Below, one piece after another: positions 1 through 27,147 of a DNA stretch of 29,961 bases. The number at the start of each line of letters is the position of its first letter. The first letter of the stretch is position 1. A program made the position numbers and the translations under genes. The notes beneath the pieces were generated by a model. It saw nothing but the letters and a program-made list of their open reading frames with translations. It made no database searches and was not told the origin of the DNA. This DNA comes from a virus. Location: UHGV virus genome UHGV-0134758. The stretch is one strand, 5' to 3'.

Positions 1-518
1 CACACACCGGCCTGCCAGCCAACAGTACCGATATTGCACCGCCAGATATTCCGGCTGGCTTCGTGGCTGTTTTTAACAGTGATGAGGCATCGTGGCATCT
101 TGTTGAAGACCATCGGGGTAAAACCGTCTATGACGTGGTTTCCGGCGACGCGTTATTTATTTCTGAACTTGGTCCGCTACCAGAGAATGTCACCTGGTTG
201 TCGCCAGCAGGGGAGTATCAGAGATGGGACGGCGTATCCTGGGTGAAGGATGAGGAAGCAGAAAAACTGTTTCGAATACGGGAAGCGGAAGAGAAAAAGG
301 CAAGGTTGATTCAGGAGGCAACAGATAACATCGCAATTCTGCAGGATGCAGTTAATCTTGAAATAGCAACAAACGAGGAAATTTCACAACTGAATTCCTG
401 GAGAAAATACAGAGTATTAGTGAGTCGAATTGACACCAGTACAGCTCCGGATATCGTATGGCCAGAGCTGATGAATCAGGGTTATGTGCGGGAGGACGAG
501 CAGATAATTTCAGACTGA
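1..518 (+). CDS. tail fibre assembly protein (Tfa / U family), 5'-truncated by window edge
   Basis: Reading frame is open from nt 3 ([20 protein letters not shown] precedes the listed 63..518 ORF, whose first codon is an internal GTG). C-terminal ...[18 protein letters not shown] resembles Mu U / e14 Tfa-type fibre chaperones (from memory). Confidence 0.8.
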
Positions 519-1045: not shown

Positions 1046-1466
1046 AATATAATCATGTGACCAATTATTATAATAATTTTAATGAATTATTTCTACTGAT
1101 TATCCAGTGTGTCTGGTGGTTTTCGGTATTATCTGCCGGAACCATGCCTCATCCAGCGAGTATTTGCTGCCGGGGTTATCCGGTTTTACGGTCACACCCT
1201 CGAGCCTCCGATTCTGGTCACGGCGGGTTTGTTATTTCCCGGTGCGTCGGATGACCACTGCCGTAACTTCTGCACCATTTTTGGGGGGGGCGGGATTCCA
1301 CTCCCACGCAACCTGCGCTTTTTGTGCAGCCTGTTTTGCTGCGCTGTCCCGGATTTTTGAGTTTCATTCTGCCCTCCCCCGATCCTATCAGGGACGACAC
1401 CCATCCACTTAAGCACGATGCCAAGACCATCAAGGAGCAGCGTCAGCGGTCCCAGCACAATGTTCT

Positions 1467-1510
1467 GCTTGACATCCTCCACGCCCTAAAGGACGTGGAG
1501 GATGTCAAGC
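1467..1510. repeat. perfect 17-bp inverted repeat (gcttgacatcctccacg / cgtggaggatgtcaagc) with 10-nt spacer
   Basis: Seen directly in sequence, anchored on the 1324..1563 ORF frame. The spacer ends also pair (cct/agg), giving a near-continuous 44-bp palindrome about 65 nt upstream of the holin-like start. Confidence 0.85.
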
Positions 1511-1573
1511 AACATGACCGGTTGAGAAGTTACTTTGCATACCATTACCTCCTGACAACGTAGGAGGGAACTT

Positions 1574-1903
1574 GTGCTTGACACACAGGAATTAGCTCCA
1601 GTTGCTATTGCGCTCCTGCTTTCAGTAATTGGTGGGATAGGCACGTTCCTGATGGATGTCCGAGACGGTCGCCAGTCTGGCAATTTGTTGGGATTGGTTA
1701 CGGAGATCTTTGTTGCAGTGACAGCTGGCGCGGTGGCGTACCTATTGGGGCAACACGAGGGCTGGGAGTTATCAATTACGTACTTAATGGTAACGATAGC
1801 CAGCAATAACGGTCATGAGGTGATTTCAGGGATGAAACGAGTGAATATCGATAGCATTCTGAATGTTCTTACAAGTTTGGTGAAAAAGGGAGGCGGGAAA
1901 TGA
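1574..1903 (+). CDS. holin-like small membrane protein (position of P1 lydA)
   Basis: 109 aa with 2-3 hydrophobic helices (LAPVAIALLLSVIGGIGTFL, LLGLVTEIFVAVTAGAVAYLL) and a charged C-terminal tail KKGGGK. GTG start 5 nt after AGGAGGG. First gene of an operon of overlapping ORFs. Confidence 0.7.
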   Translation: MLDTQELAPVAIALLLSVIGGIGTFLMDVRDGRQSGNLLGLVTEIFVAVTAGAVAYLLGQHEGWELSITYLMVTIASNNGHEVISGMKRVNIDSILNVLTSLVKKGGGK

Positions 1904-2343
1904 TTGGCTGGGGTGTATGCGTTCTTGCGTTAGCCTTAGCCGATCGCTATTTGCTAAAACGCAAGGACATCACGCATTTAGAACTTGGTGATGTGGAAAT
2001 TAAACCGGGTTTCATCCGGGTGCCGTTCAAATACCGGTCTAAATTCCCGTTTTTGCGCGGCGCAACGGTCAGATATTGGATCCGCGATGTTCAGAAGCCG
2101 ACGACAGTGATTGAAGGCGAACAACGTTGTTTGACGTCGGCTGAACAGGGCGAAAACAGTGAATGGTTGTACATACCCACTGAATATATGGGTAAAGGAG
2201 AGCGACTGTGGCATTTCAACGTCATGGTTACGCATGGCGACTCGTTCATTAACCCGTTGTATCGGATTTTCCCTGTTACTCAGCAAATCCGCAGAAGTTA
2301 CGTAATAAATCTCGCACAGGATGTGTCAGATGACGAAAAATAA
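1900..2343 (+). CDS. hypothetical protein, possible antiholin (position of P1 lydB)
   Basis: ATGA start/stop overlap with the preceding holin-like gene; hydrophobic N-terminus. Assignment is positional only. Confidence 0.55.
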   Translation: MIGWGVCVLALALADRYLLKRKDITHLELGDVEIKPGFIRVPFKYRSKFPFLRGATVRYWIRDVQKPTTVIEGEQRCLTSAEQGENSEWLYIPTEYMGKGERLWHFNVMVTHGDSFINPLYRIFPVTQQIRRSYVINLAQDVSDDEK

Positions 2344-2932
2344 GTATGCAACGGTCGATTTTGACCAAGTTAATGAAAAGGGGCTGAAATCCCTTATCGC
2401 GGCGATCAATAAAACCGGGGTTACGGTAATTGAGGTTGACTCCAGCAACCGAGCAACAACGAAAGATGGCGTTAAAGTTAAAACCGCAAAGCTGGTTCTT
2501 AACGACGGACAAATTCTTGCCATACAGGTAAACGATACTGGCGATATATCGTCTGTGAAACTGAATGGAAAAGCTATTCCTAACGCTCAGTCGCCGGATA
2601 TCAAGACGCTTGGTACCGTCATGGGACAGGCGGCCCGCAAAAACTCCGCAAAATTCCAGAAATCACTGATCGCCAAAGCGAAGCGTGTAGCCAATCCGGT
2701 AGACAAGAAACCGGCAGTTAAATCCAACTTTCAGCGCCTGCAAGAAGCAAAACAGCGGAATGCTCAGGTGGTTGCCGCTTATAAGTCCGCGCAGAATTCG
2801 GTGTCTTTCAATCAACAGCAGATCACTGATTTGCGGGCGAAGCTGGATAAGGAGACGGGCCGACTCAATAACGAAAAGGCACGGAATGGCGAACTCAAAC
2901 GTCGTCTTAAGCAACTGAAAGCAGGAAATTAA
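2330..2932 (+). CDS. hdf: Hdf-like protein (paralogue of a DarA segment)
   Basis: Shares blocks with the downstream 639-aa protein (AARKNSAKFQKSL vs LAEKNSAKFQRAQ, followed by a basic coiled-coil region). Start placed at the ATG at 2330 (AGG about 9 nt upstream); the track lists 2321. Confidence 0.6.
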   Translation: MTKNKYATVDFDQVNEKGLKSLIAAINKTGVTVIEVDSSNRATTKDGVKVKTAKLVLNDGQILAIQVNDTGDISSVKLNGKAIPNAQSPDIKTLGTVMGQAARKNSAKFQKSLIAKAKRVANPVDKKPAVKSNFQRLQEAKQRNAQVVAAYKSAQNSVSFNQQQITDLRAKLDKETGRLNNEKARNGELKRRLKQLKAGN

Positions 2933-2933
2933 C

Positions 2934-4853
2934 ATGGAACAGTTCAATATCAATAAAGGGGTGACGATCAAGCCTGGGCTTGACGTGCTTCCCCCGCCAG
3001 TGACTGATGATGAATATCGCGCATTAATGGCCGGTGAGGACCGCTATCTGATGACGGAATCCAACACCCTGGAGGAAATCGAGGCTACGTTCTTCTATGA
3101 CACGCCGATCCACTGGTGTGCTACGGATTTACTGGAGGCGATTAGTTCTACTCGTTTGCAGTTACACCGGACCATGCAGGCATTTGTCCGGGCATTGAAC
3201 CAGAAGCTGAATGGCACCGGAATCTCTGCGGGGAGTGATAAAACGGGGGATGTGGCCCAGAGCGGCGCGCGCGCGATCGGCGGTGCTGAAATTGGCCGGG
3301 CACGGAACGTTAACGGGCTGCCGGTCCTGCCAGCCATTATTCCGCTCAGTGATGGTCAGACTATCAGCATTCTGTTTCATAGCCCGACAGCGGAAAACCG
3401 GATCACCAATAGCGATACGCTGGTTGCTTTCCAGTTCTTACTGAATAAAAAAGACGTTACTCACACCGTTGCTCCGATGAGTGGACGTGATATGACGCTG
3501 GCGCAGGTCACCATGAAACTTGCCAACCTTGCAGAGAAAAACTCGGCAAAATTTCAGCGTGCGCAGAAGAAGAAAAAAGCCCTGGTTGATGAAATAACCC
3601 AACTACAGGCTGACAGTGACCAGAAAGAGGATGCCATGAGCGACCTCGCGGATCAGGTGGCAGCGGTAGAAGGGCAGAAGGTAGATCTGGAGCAGAAAAT
3701 TAACGCTGTTGCATCGGAAGCGGATTCTCTTTATGAAGAGAATGAGCGTTTGCAGACGGAGATTGATCAGCTCAATCGCACTGGTGGGCGCGAAACCATT
3801 GCTCCTGCGGGGATGACTGGTGGACACTCTCGCGCGATGACGGATCGCCTTGCAAGTATCAAAAATCGTATGCATATGAACGGGGAAGTGACGCTCAGTA
3901 ATGGTGCATCAATGAAGCAATTCATTGAGGACGGTGAAGGGTATATCCAGTTAACCGATTCGGATGGCAGCGTGTACATGATCAAGGCTAAATCCATACA
4001 GGGTGTGGACATGGCAGAAGCGATCGGCAAGCTGTTTAAAGCCTATAAAGCGGGTAATGTATCGGAATATCTGGTCCAACCAGAAGAACATAAACCGGAA
4101 AACGTCGAACCTGAACCAGCGGAGGATACCGGTAGCTCTTCGCCTGAACCAGAAGTCTCTGTAGGTGCATATCGATATGCCCTGCAAATGCGTCCGGCGG
4201 CCCCTGGCGCAATACCTGAAGGTAACAAAGCAATTCTGCCGCGCCCTGATGAAGGTGACCCGTATTATGAATATGCACGCTACGGCATTGCTACTTACGA
4301 TACCCCGCTTTCTGATCAGCAAATGAGTGAGTACGACCTGAAGTTATTGCCTCGCGAGGATTCTTTCGACTTCCTGGCGAAGACACTTACTAATGGTCCG
4401 TTTGGCAAATATGCACAAAAAGCTCTGGAGCTGGCCACCAGCTCACCAGACGAGTTCCGCGTAATGCTGAAGACTCAGTTTCAAAAAACTTTCCCCAATA
4501 TTGCGTTTCCGGGGGGCGCTGGCACCGAGAAAATGGTGCAGAGCATGATCAATGCATTGCAGGCCGAAGTCGGTGAGATTACTCAGCCAGAACCGGCCCC
4601 GGCACAGCCTGATGAAACGGTTAGCGAAGCAGATGCAGAGGCTAATAAAGCCATTGAATATCTCAATAACGTGATGGATATGCAAAGCACTGACATGGCG
4701 GAGATCCGTAACGCCCGGGGCAATGTCCGGGAAGCGATTGCAGCCCTTCAGGCTGCCGGACGTTTTGAGGAAAACGAAGAGCTGGTTAATGGCGCTGCTC
4801 GCCACCTGGCTGATCTGCTGGTAGCAATCCAGAAAGCGGGGGTAGCGGCATGA
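2934..4853 (+). CDS. darA: DarA-like antirestriction / internal head protein
   Basis: 639 aa, the length I recall for P1 DarA. Start 1 nt after the hdf stop with AGGAAA upstream. Central coiled-coil, acidic Pro/Glu-rich linker. Lies between hdf and two further operon genes as in the P1 dar operon. Confidence 0.75.
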   Translation: MEQFNINKGVTIKPGLDVLPPPVTDDEYRALMAGEDRYLMTESNTLEEIEATFFYDTPIHWCATDLLEAISSTRLQLHRTMQAFVRALNQKLNGTGISAGSDKTGDVAQSGARAIGGAEIGRARNVNGLPVLPAIIPLSDGQTISILFHSPTAENRITNSDTLVAFQFLLNKKDVTHTVAPMSGRDMTLAQVTMKLANLAEKNSAKFQRAQKKKKALVDEITQLQADSDQKEDAMSDLADQVAAVEGQKVDLEQKINAVASEADSLYEENERLQTEIDQLNRTGGRETIAPAGMTGGHSRAMTDRLASIKNRMHMNGEVTLSNGASMKQFIEDGEGYIQLTDSDGSVYMIKAKSIQGVDMAEAIGKLFKAYKAGNVSEYLVQPEEHKPENVEPEPAEDTGSSSPEPEVSVGAYRYALQMRPAAPGAIPEGNKAILPRPDEGDPYYEYARYGIATYDTPLSDQQMSEYDLKLLPREDSFDFLAKTLTNGPFGKYAQKALELATSSPDEFRVMLKTQFQKTFPNIAFPGGAGTEKMVQSMINALQAEVGEITQPEPAPAQPDETVSEADAEANKAIEYLNNVMDMQSTDMAEIRNARGNVREAIAALQAAGRFEENEELVNGAARHLADLLVAIQKAGVAA

Positions 4854-8221: not shown

Positions 8222-8759
8222 AGTTCCGCCATGTCATGCGGCCATTGTTGAATACGTTGATGATGCGCCGCTGAAAATTATTTCTGGCGACATCACAGAA
8301 GACATGATAGCGAATGCTATAAATCGGGTAATTCCTGATGAAAGCCTAAAAATAGTTAATACGCTTGATGCACCTGGTGTGCATGTGCTTCTGACATTAC
8401 AGCAGGTTTGTGGATGGAACATATACTGGCCTGGTTGGGATGATGAAGAAGATCTTATTGTCAGAATTAATATTGCCACCCCATTTGGGGAAACAGCGCT
8501 TGTTGAGTATGGCGACGACGAACCGCTAAAAATTATTTCCGGTGATATTACCGAAATCATGATTGAAGAAGCGATCGCTGGTGCAAGTCCTGGAGGTTAT
8601 TTAGGGTTGGTTAACACCCTTGATGCATCTGGCGTAGAGATTCTTCGAACACTGAATTATTTTGCTGGCTGGTTTGTTGATTGGCCTGTGGTTGAGGGTG
8701 GCGATGAAGATGACGACGACGATGATTTGGATATCCATATTGCTCCGTACGTAAATTGA
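8205..8759 (+). CDS. hypothetical acidic protein with internal tandem duplication
   Basis: Two copies of an approx. 55-aa module (AAIVEYVDDAPLKIISGDITEDMIANAI... and TALVEYGDDEPLKIISGDITEIMIEEAI...), then a poly-Asp tail (DEDDDDDD). Start overlaps the preceding ORF by 17 nt. Confidence 0.55.
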   Translation: MKIHVEVPPCHAAIVEYVDDAPLKIISGDITEDMIANAINRVIPDESLKIVNTLDAPGVHVLLTLQQVCGWNIYWPGWDDEEDLIVRINIATPFGETALVEYGDDEPLKIISGDITEIMIEEAIAGASPGGYLGLVNTLDASGVEILRTLNYFAGWFVDWPVVEGGDEDDDDDDLDIHIAPYVN

Positions 8760-8764
8760 ACAAA

Positions 8765-8788
8765 CCCCGCCGATTGGCGGGGTTTGTT
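8765..8788 (+). terminator. rho-independent terminator
   Basis: ccccgcc-gatt-ggcgggg stem-loop followed by tttgtt, 6 nt after the stop at 8759. Confidence 0.7.
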
Positions 8789-9090
8789 CCTAGCGTGCCG
8801 TAAAATACTACCCTTCAGGTTTAATTGACATGGTGTTTTCAATGTTATGCTATAGATTCATTTTGCTTGCTAATTTATATCAAAATTTATTGAACCAATT
8901 GTTGAGTACATTTTAAATCAGCAACTCTTAAATTTTGCTAATTAATTAGTCAGCTATCTATCGCTGTGGTTGATATTAATGTGCTGGTGTAACGTGTTTT
9001 TATATTGTGCTGTTGTCTCTGGTTGCGATTTGGTCTTAGTGTTATTTCTTGCTCTGTTTATTAATCAATTGGTTTACAGTGATGTTTTTT

Positions 9091-11047: not shown

Positions 11048-11064
11048 AAATTTATTAGAGCAAT
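11048..11064 (-). promoter_or_regulatory. C1-repressor operator-like 17-mer, 17/17 to ATTGCTCTAATAAATTT
   Basis: Plus strand reads aaatttattagagcaat, the reverse complement of the P1 C1 operator consensus as I recall it. Sits in the divergent ssb/lyz intergenic region. Confidence 0.55.
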
Positions 11065-14843: not shown

Positions 14844-17800
14844 ATGAACAAGCTATCTATGGGGTTGTTTCGCTGTTCAAGTGTCAGCGAAATATTGAAA
14901 TACATTAGGGCAATAACATCTCATCGAGCGCCGATTAGATACGGCGTGGAAAAGGTGGAAGGCAAAAGCTATGACCGGCTGCGCCGGGAGGCGAATCAGA
15001 AGGCGATAGATTTGCTTAATTCGCTGGTGGACGGCGCGACACTGACAGATGAACAGCGCCAGATCCTGGCCGGGTACACTGGTGAAGGCGGCATTGGCGG
15101 GTCCGTCTCCGAATATTACACACCAAAGCCTATCGCTGAAGGCGTCTGGGAGATCATGAAGCTCTATGGCGCGGACGTAGGTAACACTCTGGAACCATCG
15201 GCGGGCACCGGCGTTTTTAATGAGACAAAACCGGTTGGTACGGTGATGACCGCGACTGAGATCAGCAGTGTTTCCGGTCGTATAAACCAGCTGTTACATC
15301 CGGAAGACAGCGTACAGATTTCCCCGTTCGAACAACTCGCTGTAAGCACGCCTAACGATTCATTCGACCATGTTGTGGGTAACGTTCCGTTCGGCGGTCG
15401 TGATAACACACGCAACATCGATAAGCCTTACGCAGAAGAAACGGATATGGGGTCTTACTTCATGCTCCGCATGCTGGACAAGATAAAGCCAGGCGGATTC
15501 ATGTGTGTGATTGTGCCGCCGTCCATTGTTTCAGGTTCAAACATGAAGCGGTTACGCCTGCGCCTATCACGGAAAGCTGAATTTCTTGGTGCCCACCGCT
15601 TGCCTACCGGTACTTTTGACGCAAACGGGACCAGTACGGTCGTTGACGTGGTGCTGATGCGCAAACATCCGGCGGAGATGGCTGAGAAAATCCCCCTGGT
15701 GGATGAAGGCACTCTTGAATCGGCAAATGTGCTTTGGCCAACGTTTATTTCTGGCAAGTGGTTTGAAAAGGACGGCCGCCGGTTTGTTCATGGCACCCAG
15801 GAGAAGGGATTCCAGGGGCGTATTGAGGTTCGTGCCGACGGGCAGATTGATAACCAGGCTCTTAAAGCGAAGCTGATTCATCGTTTCGAAAGTCGTATCG
15901 ACTGGTCTTTGCTCGATATGGCTGAACCGTCACCGACCGCAGACGTTGTTGGTGAAGGGGAAATACGCCTGATTAATGGCGTATGGCAAAAATATGCTGG
16001 TGGTCGCTGGATTGAATCTGATGCCGGGAAGGAGCTGAAGATTGATGTTGCCAGTTATGGCGCGGATAGCTGGGAGGCTCTTCAGCGTAACCTGACTACA
16101 ACAGAAGGCCGTCTCGGCATGACATTTACCCAGATGGCAAATGTCCGCGATAAGTACACCACATCAATCAGCGACGATATGGTGCAGCTGGTGGACTGGA
16201 TTAACAGCCAGCCTGAAAAATACCGTGAACGCTTGTATCGCGGGGCGATGATTGGCCGGATGTTAATTGAATATCAGGATATGAAGGCCGCCGGGCATAG
16301 TGCTGAACAAATCGAACAGCAGCGCCTTTCCCTGGTATCCCGTTTGCAGGCAGAGATTGACCGTTTTGGTAACCCCGGTCGCGGTCCGATAGCGAAATTA
16401 TCGGGGAGCGGTGCGCGCGCCTGGTTTGCTTTCCGTGGTGCAATTAAGCTGGATGGCACTATTTCTGACGAGCTGACAGGAAAGCTGGTTACGCATGATT
16501 CCAGCGCCAGTTATGACTCCACCAGCTATCAGGACACCCTGCGTTATCTCTACAGTGATCTCACTCGCGATCCAATCCAGCTCGATGATTTCCGCCTTGC
16601 GTTTACCGGCGAACTGCCAGCCAGTGATGACGAGTTGCTTAATTTATTGGCCAGCACCCCTGGCATTGCGGTTTCACCGTATGGCGGGATTGTTCCGTTT
16701 GCCCGCGCCACCAGCGGCGACATTAACGAGATAGTGGCTCCAAAACAGGAATTCCTCGCCACGCTCCCCGACGGTCCAGTAAAGAACAACGTCCTTAATC
16801 AGCTGGCAGCGATCGAAGAGAAGCGCATCAAGACGCCAGCAGAGAATATCCGGTTTAAGCTCAATAGCCGTTGGTTTGACCGTTCCGTCATCCTGGAGTT
16901 TTTGCAGGAAAACGGCTATCCGGATCTGCGCTATGTGCAGTCAGTGCAGCTGGAAGGCGACGAAATGGTTTCTGACACCTATCACGGTGGTGATGGTCTG
17001 TTCGTCGGACACCGATACGGTGTCGTCCAGCGCAAGGATAAAGAAACAGGCGAGATCCGCTACGAGTGGGACCGTAAATCAGGTGAAAACGCGACCGGGT
17101 TCCCGGCACAGCTGGAAAAGTATCTCAATGGTGCGCGTATCGGTGGCAAAGATAGCGCGACGGCGAACGGCTACCGCGAGCAGATGGCACTGCTTGAGGA
17201 CCAGTTCAATAAGTGGATCAAGACGCACGATCGCTACGATGAGCTGGTTGCCAAATACAACGATGTGTTCAATAGCAATATCCCGTATGAACACTCTGGC
17301 GATCCGCTTGGGTTGAAGGGATTAAGCGGTAAGCGCCAGCCATTTGATTACCAGAATAGCGAGGTGCGCCGACTGTCCGAAGATGGGCGCGGCATCCTGG
17401 GCTTCGGCACCGGGCTGGGTAAAACCACGACCGCGCTGGCGCTTGAGGCGTTCAACTATGAGAACGGTCGCTCCACCCGTACTGCGTATGTAGTGCCTAA
17501 ATCAGTGCTGGAAAACTGGTATTACGAAGCAAAAGAATTCCTGAGTGAAGAGGCATTCAGTAACTACCTGTTCGTCGGTCTTGATGTGCTGATGGATGGC
17601 GATCAGATTCGCCAGGTGCCGGTGCTCGATGAGAACGGTAAACCAGTTCTTGGTACTGATGGCACTCCAGTTATGCGCGATGCTCTTAAGCTGGCAGATG
17701 AAGCCACTATCACGGCGCGGATGAACGCGATCCCGCACTCAAATTACCGTGCAGTCGTGTTTACCAAAGAACAATACGCCCGCATTCCGCTACGTGATGA

Positions 17801-26781: not shown

Positions 26782-26878
26782 TTTTCACCTCTGATTGATT
26801 GGTGGTGCTAAGTGCGCTACGCGAAATCTGGAGCACTAACACTGCCAACATTTCGCAGATTTTACGTAGCGCAACCTT

Positions 26879-27047: not shown

Positions 27048-27064
27048 AGAATTATTAGAGCAAT
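27048..27064 (-). promoter_or_regulatory. C1-operator-like 17-mer (15/17)
   Basis: agaattattagagcaat between loxP and coi. Confidence 0.5.
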
Positions 27065-27130: not shown

Positions 27131-27147
27131 ATTGCTCTAATAAATTA
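27131..27147 (+). promoter_or_regulatory. C1-operator-like 17-mer (16/17) directly abutting a TTGACA -35
   Basis: ttgaca-attgctctaataaatta; candidate autoregulated promoter of the coi-c1 operon. Confidence 0.55.

Follow-up and report, generated by a model that had tools for sequence, protein, structure and literature searches.

In transposons of the IS200/IS605 family, a tetranucleotide at the 5′ foot of the terminal hairpin reads the cleavage site (PMC7290912). TCAA is the commonest right-end (RE) cleavage motif in TnpB-carrying IS605 elements, half of the TnpB elements share G-rich RE-tip motifs (PMC9956272), and the omega-RNA derives from the RE (PMC8612924). Terminal-only palindrome-associated transposable elements (PATEs) of about 52 bp are IS605-type transposons collapsed by deletion between near-terminal palindromes, and those of haloarchaea may still move (Dyall-Smith et al. 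2011, PMC3119063). Repetitive extragenic palindromes (REPs) and their doublets (REPINs), with their associated transposases (RAYT or TnpA-REP), are likewise short and dispersed, and are tied by evolution to IS200-type Y1/HUH transposases (PMC6006769). Finally, class C group II (IIC) introns recognise a stem-loop together with an intron-binding site (IBS1) of 3–4 nt (PMC3522654; PMC1702495). Here, we analysed a long palindrome that lies upstream of the lydA gene in UHGV-0134758, a P1-like phage-plasmid sequence of 29,961 bp (the window). Most probably, this palindrome represents a solo copy of a 40-bp hairpin unit that is pan-prokaryotic in distribution and comes from the RE tip of an IS609-type IS200/IS605 transposon, a mirrored relic serving as an intron homing site and not as an operator or terminator.

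The first-pass annotation had described perfect 17-nt arms separated by a 10-nt spacer with pairing ends, upstream of a holin-like gene, and both descriptions were borne out. The gene is lydA, the P1 holin, and gcttgacatcctccacg at 1467–1483 has its exact reverse complement at 1494–1510. A repeat search lengthened the arms to 22 nt around a 2-nt centre (1466–1487 and 1490–1511, 95% complementary), with one non-Watson-Crick position (T·G/C·A), making the palindrome the longest short-range inverted repeat of the window. Under a uniform-base model, the chance expectation in a window of this size is 3.7e-5 perfect repeats with 17-nt arms and a spacer of 0–20 nt. When folded as single-stranded DNA, the two strands form hairpins of −25.7 and −25.9 kcal/mol, the latter being the minus strand, and the corresponding RNA folds reach −39 and −43 kcal/mol. 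Fold z-scores range from −8.6 to −9.4, and none of 200 shuffled sequences was as stable. The palindrome is real and non-random.

What is the source of this sequence? The three E. coli chromosomal matches that we inspected all lie immediately 3′ of an insQ/tnpB gene of the IS200/IS605 family, whose product carries the Pfam domains OrfB_IS605 and Cas12f1-like_TNB and which we take to be IS609 of the K-12 annotation. Read in the sense of tnpB, the RE of this element ends ...GGGA-TCCACGTCC-TTCA-GGGCGTGGA-GGATGTCAA, followed by the flank. In E. coli BL21, 30 of its last 31 nt are identical to the minus strand of the window, against 27 of 31 for the plus strand, and the remaining 9 nt of the 40-bp unit are the mirror image of the RE tip. 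The one position at which the arms of the palindrome fail to match corresponds to the T·G wobble that the IS hairpin has by nature, and this wobble orients the copy on the minus strand. To see how general this end is, we inspected 37 tnpB loci from IMG/VR and metagenomes, with protein identities to InsQ from 97% down to ~28%. The boundary between RE and flank falls directly after TCAA in all tnpB loci examined, and 27 of the 37 end ...GGAA-TCCCCGNCC-TTTA-GGNCGGGGA-GGATGTCAA or in a one-base variant of it, 34–120 nt past the tnpB match and with the ...GGAA foot on the 5′ side. The palindrome thus shares with the RE of TnpB- and TnpA-bearing members (the IS608/ISDra2 paradigm and the IS609/insQ type) the same hairpin, the 9-nt linker, the terminal TCAA cleavage motif, the T·G wobble and the boundary after TCAA.

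The palindrome differs from an intact element in several respects. It has no tnpB or omega-RNA scaffold upstream, no tnpA and no partner left end (LE) with its TTAT transposon-associated motif (TAM). In IS608 the guide tetranucleotide is of the GAAT type, and no such foot is present here. InsQ and TnpA gave no tblastn match in the window. In the matching elements, left ends (as defined from L097, L124 and L126) read TTAT/CC..GCGCCGTAAAA-CCCCATCC-TTCA-GGNCGGGG, and a search of the whole window for the LE hairpin and foot motif returned only the palindrome itself, with 4 mismatches. Because there is no transposase gene, tnpB or left end, the palindrome would be a relic or a PATE-like derivative and not an active insertion sequence. 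The one departure of the solo unit from a genuine RE is its 5′ foot: in place of the natural GTAGGAA it has TTGACATCC, a mirror image of the tip, which yields a perfect palindrome in which both strands end ...GGAGGATGTCAA. Genuine right ends read ...GGAA-TCCCCG where the window reads ...CATCC-TCCACG. Two other P1-like IMG/VR contigs (L114 and L116) carry an IS609-like tnpB element elsewhere in their genome, with an RE tip ending GGAGGATGTCAC, and this element is a possible local source of RE-tip sequences.

In sister plasmids, the palindrome is occupied. The 370 bp to its left (1096–1465) are confined to 37 P1-like plasmids, two of which are collinear with the window, whereas 35 carry 482 extra nt between G1471 and A1472; six IMG/VR contigs are also intron-occupied at the palindrome. 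In L003, which like its relatives has the insert exactly at this point, the 482 nt were recognised by Rfam as a minus-strand group II intron (RF02001, 104 bits; RF01998, 47 bits), on the same strand as the IS609-type RE tip. The intron junctions on this strand read ...CGTGGAGGATGT/GTGCGC...CCTATGCCGAT/CAAGCAG, with a 5′ exon ending ...GGAGGATGT, a 3′ exon beginning CAAGCAG, and GATGT at 1472–1476 as IBS1. The E. coli intron lacks an open reading frame (ORF) and retains domains I–III; its 68-nt tail of domains V and VI shares 85% identity with the tail of a full-length relative and has its 3′ end at the identical position. In plasmids of Enterobacter and Pseudomonas, relatives of ~82% identity immediately follow textbook terminators, the order being hairpin, T-run and GTGCG, and the intron-encoded protein of the Enterobacter relative has reverse transcriptase and maturase domains only, with no endonuclease domain. 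Terminator sites and such a protein are hallmarks of class C introns.

The loop of domain I that holds the exon-binding site (EBS1) covaries with the 5′ exon: ACATC faces GATGT in the E. coli intron, ATAAAA faces TTTTAT in L004 and AAGA faces TCTT in L007. This covariation argues that the intron lineage has shifted its target to the palindrome tip. The same intron family also follows the same type of palindrome in Azotobacter (L091), where the 3′ exon again begins CAA, and is found as a remnant after ccdB in IncFIB plasmids (L006). The site therefore has a stem-loop that includes IBS1, complementarity of IBS1 and EBS1 with covariation, and occupied orthologous and parallel sites and, as judged from sequence, the palindrome is a group IIC intron homing site that is unoccupied in the window. 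In our model, the single-stranded transposon-sense (minus) strand would form the hairpin followed by GATGT, the intron lineage would recognise it through stem-loop contact and EBS1–IBS1 pairing, and the intron would reverse-splice between GGATGT and CAA. As at the known IIC sites (terminators, and attC for the IIC-attC lineage), the stem-loop precedes a short IBS1 with which EBS1 pairs, and insertion is strand-specific (PMC1702495). Unlike those sites, the palindrome is neither a terminator, having no T-run, nor an attC but a transposon-end palindrome, and insertion falls within the extended stem, 3 nt short of its end, and IBS1 belongs to the stem. In L004 (E. kobei pIB2020, ~4333–4340), two group IIC introns stand in tandem, the 3′ end of the first (CCTATGCCGAT) being followed 2 nt later by the start of the second (GTGCGCC); the second may use the terminal stem-loop of the first as its target hairpin.

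Is the intact palindrome of the window an ancestral empty site, or did it lose an intron? Only 2 of the 37 plasmids that share the flank are empty and the empty allele has the exact sequence of ligated exons, as expected if an intron had been lost precisely by recombination with a spliced-exon cDNA or with an empty allele. Such a loss is nevertheless improbable. The window and the two empty-site plasmids form a distinct haplotype, with left flanks at least 99% identical to one another and ~92% identical to those of the occupied plasmids, from which (L003 and the intron-occupied haplotype) the window differs by several indels; a lineage split before intron invasion is the simpler reading. Moreover, the intron is ORF-less and antisense to lydA, which leaves a spliced cDNA with no obvious source. 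Pfam gave no match for any ORF in 1096–1563, and nothing identifies the left flank as a tnpB remnant. It contains a G8 homopolymer at 1283–1290.

The inner 40 bp of the palindrome, read more narrowly as TTGACATCC-TCCNCGNCC-TTNA-GGNCGNGGA-GGATGTCAA at 1469–1508, recur far beyond the P1-like plasmids. Sensitive blastn with positions 1460–1517 found them in 3,420 plasmid records (5,341 places), in 300 phage records, mostly Shiga toxin (Stx)-converting lambdoid phages, and in 4,916 of 5,426 complete E. coli genomes, counts that include both solo palindromes and genuine IS right ends. A scan for the exact pattern ACATCCTCCNCG-N6-12-CGNGGAGGATGT returned 15 IMG/VR contigs and 72 species-representative genomes with unrelated flanks, from Enterobacteria, Legionella, methanotrophs, cyanobacteria, Streptomyces, Chlamydiales, bacteria of the candidate phyla radiation and haloarchaea. 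Several features of the unit emerged from these copies: (i) in 78 distinct copies, pairing reaches exactly to TTG/CAA and is at chance level beyond, the outer 3 bp on each side in the window (TGC/GCA) being peculiar to this locus; (ii) the outer TTG/CAA positions covary as base pairs, and so does the free stem position (C-G in 53 of the 78 copies, T-A in 10, A-T in 7 and G-C in 2); and (iii) across an alignment of 58 sequences, pairing in the 18-bp helix amounts to 97.6%, and each of the 7 variable pairs shows changes in both arms, values that none of 500 shuffles reached, 11 of the pairs being set in advance by the search pattern and hence uninformative. TTGAC was also considered as a TAM and rejected, since the TAM of the matching elements is TTAT and the outer TTG/CAA covary as pairs. 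When ORFs within 3 kb on either side of 87 solo copies were clustered, no protein family was recurrently adjacent, and fragments of tnpA or tnpB were near only 5 of the ~87 loci.

In being short, dispersed, extragenic and related to IS200-type transposases, the 40-bp unit resembles REPs. REPs, however, are species-specific, have a GT[AG]G foot on the 5′ side and lie on the flanks of a RAYT gene, whereas the unit is nearly invariant across phyla, is present in few copies per replicon and corresponds to IS605 RE tips and not to the REP consensus. Searching the literature by arm sequence, in a limited way, retrieved only primers and probes. Among the probe tables, one for Y. pestis pPCP1 includes a shorter related hairpin, CATCCTCCCC-TAGC-GGGGAGGATG, downstream of pla (PMC4991868). 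Because the arm sequence is widespread, the hairpin could contribute to cross-reactivity of diagnostic probes that overlap it.

Could the palindrome control the dar operon? A long, near-perfect dyad 16 bp upstream of the −22 box of the late promoter LPdar is what might be expected if a dimeric phage or host protein bound the duplex and controlled LPdar and the lydA-darA operon, the first candidate of the first-pass annotation. The relatives make this very improbable. P1, P7, SJ46, RCS47 and others align with the window only from 1507–1523 on and all lack the palindrome, yet they keep the LPdar-lydA sequence identical. The first-pass annotation had itself held that absence from related phages with unchanged operon regulation would speak against its proposals, and the absence, together with the shared LPdar-lydA, is in part what we found. 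P1 carries lydC and cin in place of window positions 1050–1506, and both annotated elements of LPdar, the −22 box and the −10, are situated entirely downstream of the palindrome and of the point where homology breaks. Therefore, the palindrome sits exactly at a mosaic breakpoint, outside the conserved promoter. A unit found in hundreds of unrelated contexts, from Streptomyces to haloarchaea, is also incompatible with a P1-specific regulator site.

Known regulatory signals were likewise absent from the palindrome. No C1 operator (ATTGCTCTAATAAATTT), second Lpa −22 box (AAGTTACTT) or similarity to a cix half-site was found there; C1 operator matches occur elsewhere in the window, for example at 11048, and the Lpa box solely at 1527. 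TTGACA hexamers, which the first-pass annotation had pointed out, are indeed present on both strands (1469–1474, plus; 1508–1503, minus), but as promoters they fail: a test for −35 and −10 hexamers with a 16–18 nt spacer found no −10 partner at any allowed spacing, and a sigma-70 promoter scan found no site within the palindrome. The palindrome is not a typical intrinsic terminator either, as the annotation had rightly said, since neither strand has the T-run that should follow the stem-loop of a Rho-independent terminator, and a terminator scan called nothing at the palindrome. Sigma-70 promoter, intrinsic terminator, C1 operator, second Lpa box and cix remnant were thus each tried and discarded, the last with a best ungapped cixL match of 13 of 31 positions. 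Among the candidates of the first-pass annotation, a remnant recombination site comes closest: it holds for an IS200/IS605-type right-end hairpin, a single-strand recombination site for a Y1/HUH transposase, but not for Cin/cix. Altogether, the palindrome would have no dedicated role in the control of LPdar or lydA because relatives without it keep the same promoter, because an intron splits one of its arms in 35 of 37 siblings, because the 40-bp unit is ubiquitous in unrelated contexts and because the site has no C1, Lpa or cix similarity.

Solo copies are often located a few bases past stop codons. In Stx-converting and related lambdoid phages, as in Stx2a phage L180 (1498–1543), a copy lies 17 nt after the stop codon of cI; another follows ccdB in IncFIB plasmids, and the related hairpin of pPCP1 follows pla. 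Together with the very stable RNA fold, this placement may suggest a REP-like RNA role, possibly on top of a transposon origin: the hairpin might block 3′ exonucleases, make transcription pause or partly terminate, or be a site for RNase III. In the window, such a hairpin would keep the tail-fibre and acetyltransferase region insulated from the dar operon. The published discussion of IS200/IS605 terminal hairpins as transcription terminators (PMC7290912) also counts for this idea. We consider it rather unlikely, as neither strand has a U-tract and no gene ends beside the palindrome on either strand of the window; moreover, sequence as well as structure is conserved across domains of life, suggesting a sequence-specific origin and not generic RNA stability. 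Rfam, run on the window in E-value mode, gave spurious matches of the hairpin to miRNAs and frameshift elements and no known RNA family. The RNA processing hairpin at the head of the operon that the first-pass annotation had listed received no support. The sole terminator-like site in 1000–1700 is a weak one 140 bp upstream of the palindrome, at 1313–1329 on the plus strand (CTGCGC-TTTTT-GTGCAG, then CCTGTTTTGC).

How did a transposon tip become a mirrored palindrome? One half of the unit would be a genuine RE terminus, with the 3′ arm of the hairpin recognised by TnpA, the 9-nt linker GGATG... and the terminal TCAA, and the other half its exact mirror image. We infer that the unit arose either when two head-to-head IS copies underwent deletion between their RE hairpins, leaving a scar, or by hairpin template switching. 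The palindromic hairpin would be a direct repeat between two inverted IS copies, and a deletion between the two hairpins would leave exactly TTGACATCC-hairpin-GGATGTCAA. Either origin would account for the position of the unit at a mosaic breakpoint that lacks the cin and lydC genes of P1. A head-to-head scar would further explain the sharp boundaries and the missing IS genes, the stem variant common to a solo copy and a resident IS in L013, and the position of copies at deletion or mosaic junctions, in the window relative to P1 and in phage PhiR12_3 relative to other Stx phages. Indeed, PhiR12_3 (L008; copy at 14876–14915) shares with the other phages just the cI side up to the palindrome, so the solo copy marks a mosaic junction there.

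Alternatively, the 40-bp unit could be an active minimal non-autonomous transposon, an ultra-short PATE that TnpA mobilises in trans and that inserted itself at this locus. Terminal-only haloarchaeal PATEs of ~52 bp, seemingly mobilised, provide a precedent (PMC3119063), and the palindrome is like them gene-less, very short, dispersed and the target of a mobile element, with an IS605-type hairpin and a conserved terminal oligonucleotide. Sharp 40-bp boundaries fit a mobile unit. So does one Oxalobacter metagenome-assembled genome, which has several copies with the same idiosyncratic stem variant and different flanks, and so does L013/L164 (Ga0163154_10007782), in which a complete IS605-type element (tnpA and tnpB) has a genuine RE tip and a solo mirrored palindrome of the same stem variant lies 70 nt downstream. 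Nonetheless, self-insertion is unlikely: the unit has neither a left end nor a TTAT TAM, its 5′ foot is not a GAAT-type guide, no empty site was found among 97 related phages, and the covariation of the outer TTG/CAA fits mirror copying better than a fixed target motif. In organisation, a terminal-only PATE joins an LE tip, a hairpin and an RE tip, whereas the 40-bp unit joins an inverted RE tip, a hairpin and an RE tip. An LE-plus-RE reading of the unit was rejected, as left ends read TTAT/CC..GCGCCGTAAAA-hairpin and never TTGACATCC. Head-to-head scar, hairpin template switching and trans-mobilisation by TnpA are all possible origins of the mirrored unit.

Several points weigh against a solo, mirrored RE tip as the identity of the palindrome. 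The evidence throughout is comparative sequence analysis. Where genuine right ends have GGAA(T), the solo unit has CATCC as its 5′ foot; therefore, the unit must be more than a truncation of an RE. A chimeric probe (RE interior, tip and LPdar flank) revealed no intermediate, that is, no plasmid in which an intact IS609 RE abuts the LPdar flank. No empty site was found for the Stx-phage solo copy downstream of cI; all 97 of 97 relatives sharing both flanks (repressor and methyltransferase) are filled, so they give no evidence on mobility. The frequent position of solo copies just after stop codons (cI, ccdB and pla) could reflect a selected RNA function. Given the limited literature search, the 40-bp unit may already bear a name.

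For annotation, the identification of the palindrome as a mirrored IS609-type tip turns a dyad upstream of a lysis and anti-restriction operon into mobile-element debris and not a regulator, which removes a false lead. More generally, one short TnpB-transposon tip sequence would persist in very distant prokaryotes as a 40-bp palindrome with sharp boundaries and sit at module junctions in phages and plasmids, and a group IIC intron lineage would have switched from terminators to a transposon-derived hairpin as a safe harbour. The palindrome of the window seems to be a functionally ordinary relic, and its family and the adapted intron lineage seem under-described. Tentatively, and with less confidence than we place in the solo RE-tip identity, mirrored 40-bp RE-tip palindromes might form a distinct, unnamed class of micro-elements that are made or mobilised by the IS605-family machinery (as collapsed head-to-head IS scars or by TnpA in trans), mark recombination and mosaic junctions and act as a dedicated landing pad for EBS1-retargeted IIC introns. 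If so, three selfish layers would be superimposed: an IS tip, its palindromic derivative and an intron. Should such a class be confirmed, it would offer a convenient marker of past IS605 activity and recombination breakpoints, a natural system for the recognition of DNA stem-loops by IIC introns and a reason to mask such hairpins in searches for operators and terminators. Because the unit holds the last ~31 nt of the omega-RNA scaffold region, one may purely speculate that it interacts with TnpB, for example as a decoy.

Table 1. Positions of the palindrome, its component parts and the surrounding features in the 29,961-bp window.
Feature	Positions	Strand	Description
Tail-fibre assembly gene	63–518	+	
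Hexapeptide acetyltransferase	482–1045	−	PF00132, E 6.6e-13; serine acetyltransferase in relatives' annotation
Lineage-specific left flank, apparently non-coding	1096–1465	none	Replaces cin and lydC of P1
Full local palindrome	1466–1511	none	22-nt arms, 2-nt centre, one non-Watson-Crick position
Dispersed 40-bp unit	1469–1508	none	TTGACATCC-TCCACGNCC-TNNA-GGNCGTGGA-GGATGTCAA
Segment homologous to IS609-type RE tip	1469–1499	−	Reads TCCACGTCCTTTAGGGCGTGGAGGATGTCAA
TCAA, equivalent of RE-tip cleavage motif	1469–1472	−	Mirror copy at 1505–1508 (+)
Unoccupied group IIC intron insertion point (from sequence)	1471/1472	−	...GGAGGATGT/CAAGCAG; GGATGT/CAA
TnpA-type subterminal hairpin	1478–1499	−	TCCACGTCC-TTTA-GGGCGTGGA, T·G wobble included
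Start of P1-homologous DNA	1507–1573	+	With LPdar and lydA ribosome-binding site
LPdar late promoter	1527–1535; 1540–1545	+	−22 box AAGTTACTT; −10 TACCAT; homology with annotated P1 genome
lydA (P1 holin)	1574–1903	+	First gene of dar operon lydA-lydB-hdf-darA; homology and annotation
lydB	1900–2343		
hdf	2321–2932		
darA	2934–4853		

To the left of the palindrome (Table 1), the acetyltransferase gene overlaps the 3′ end of the tail-fibre assembly gene, is convergent to the tail-fibre genes and occupies the place of the invertible C-segment and cin in P1. In the closest plasmid, a gene for a macro-domain protein lies between the tail-fibre gene and the assembly gene. Both the acetyltransferase and the macro-domain protein may be moron-like cargo that modifies receptors or the host surface.

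Elsewhere in the window, the P1 C1 operator consensus ATTGCTCTAATAAATTT has one exact and two near-exact matches (1–2 mismatches), at 11048–11064 (minus), 27048–27064 (minus) and 27131–27147 (plus), the C1-like pair near 27.0–27.1 kb flanking an A/T-rich stretch. A perfect 14-bp GC-rich inverted repeat at 8758–8789, GAACAAACCCCGCC-GATT-GGCGGGGTTTGTTC, has no clear T-run on the plus strand and may be a minus-strand terminator. Finally, an 18-nt inverted repeat with 89% complementarity and a 25-nt spacer, TGCGCTACGCGAAATCTG ... CAGATTTTACGTAGCGCA, is located at 26813–26873.

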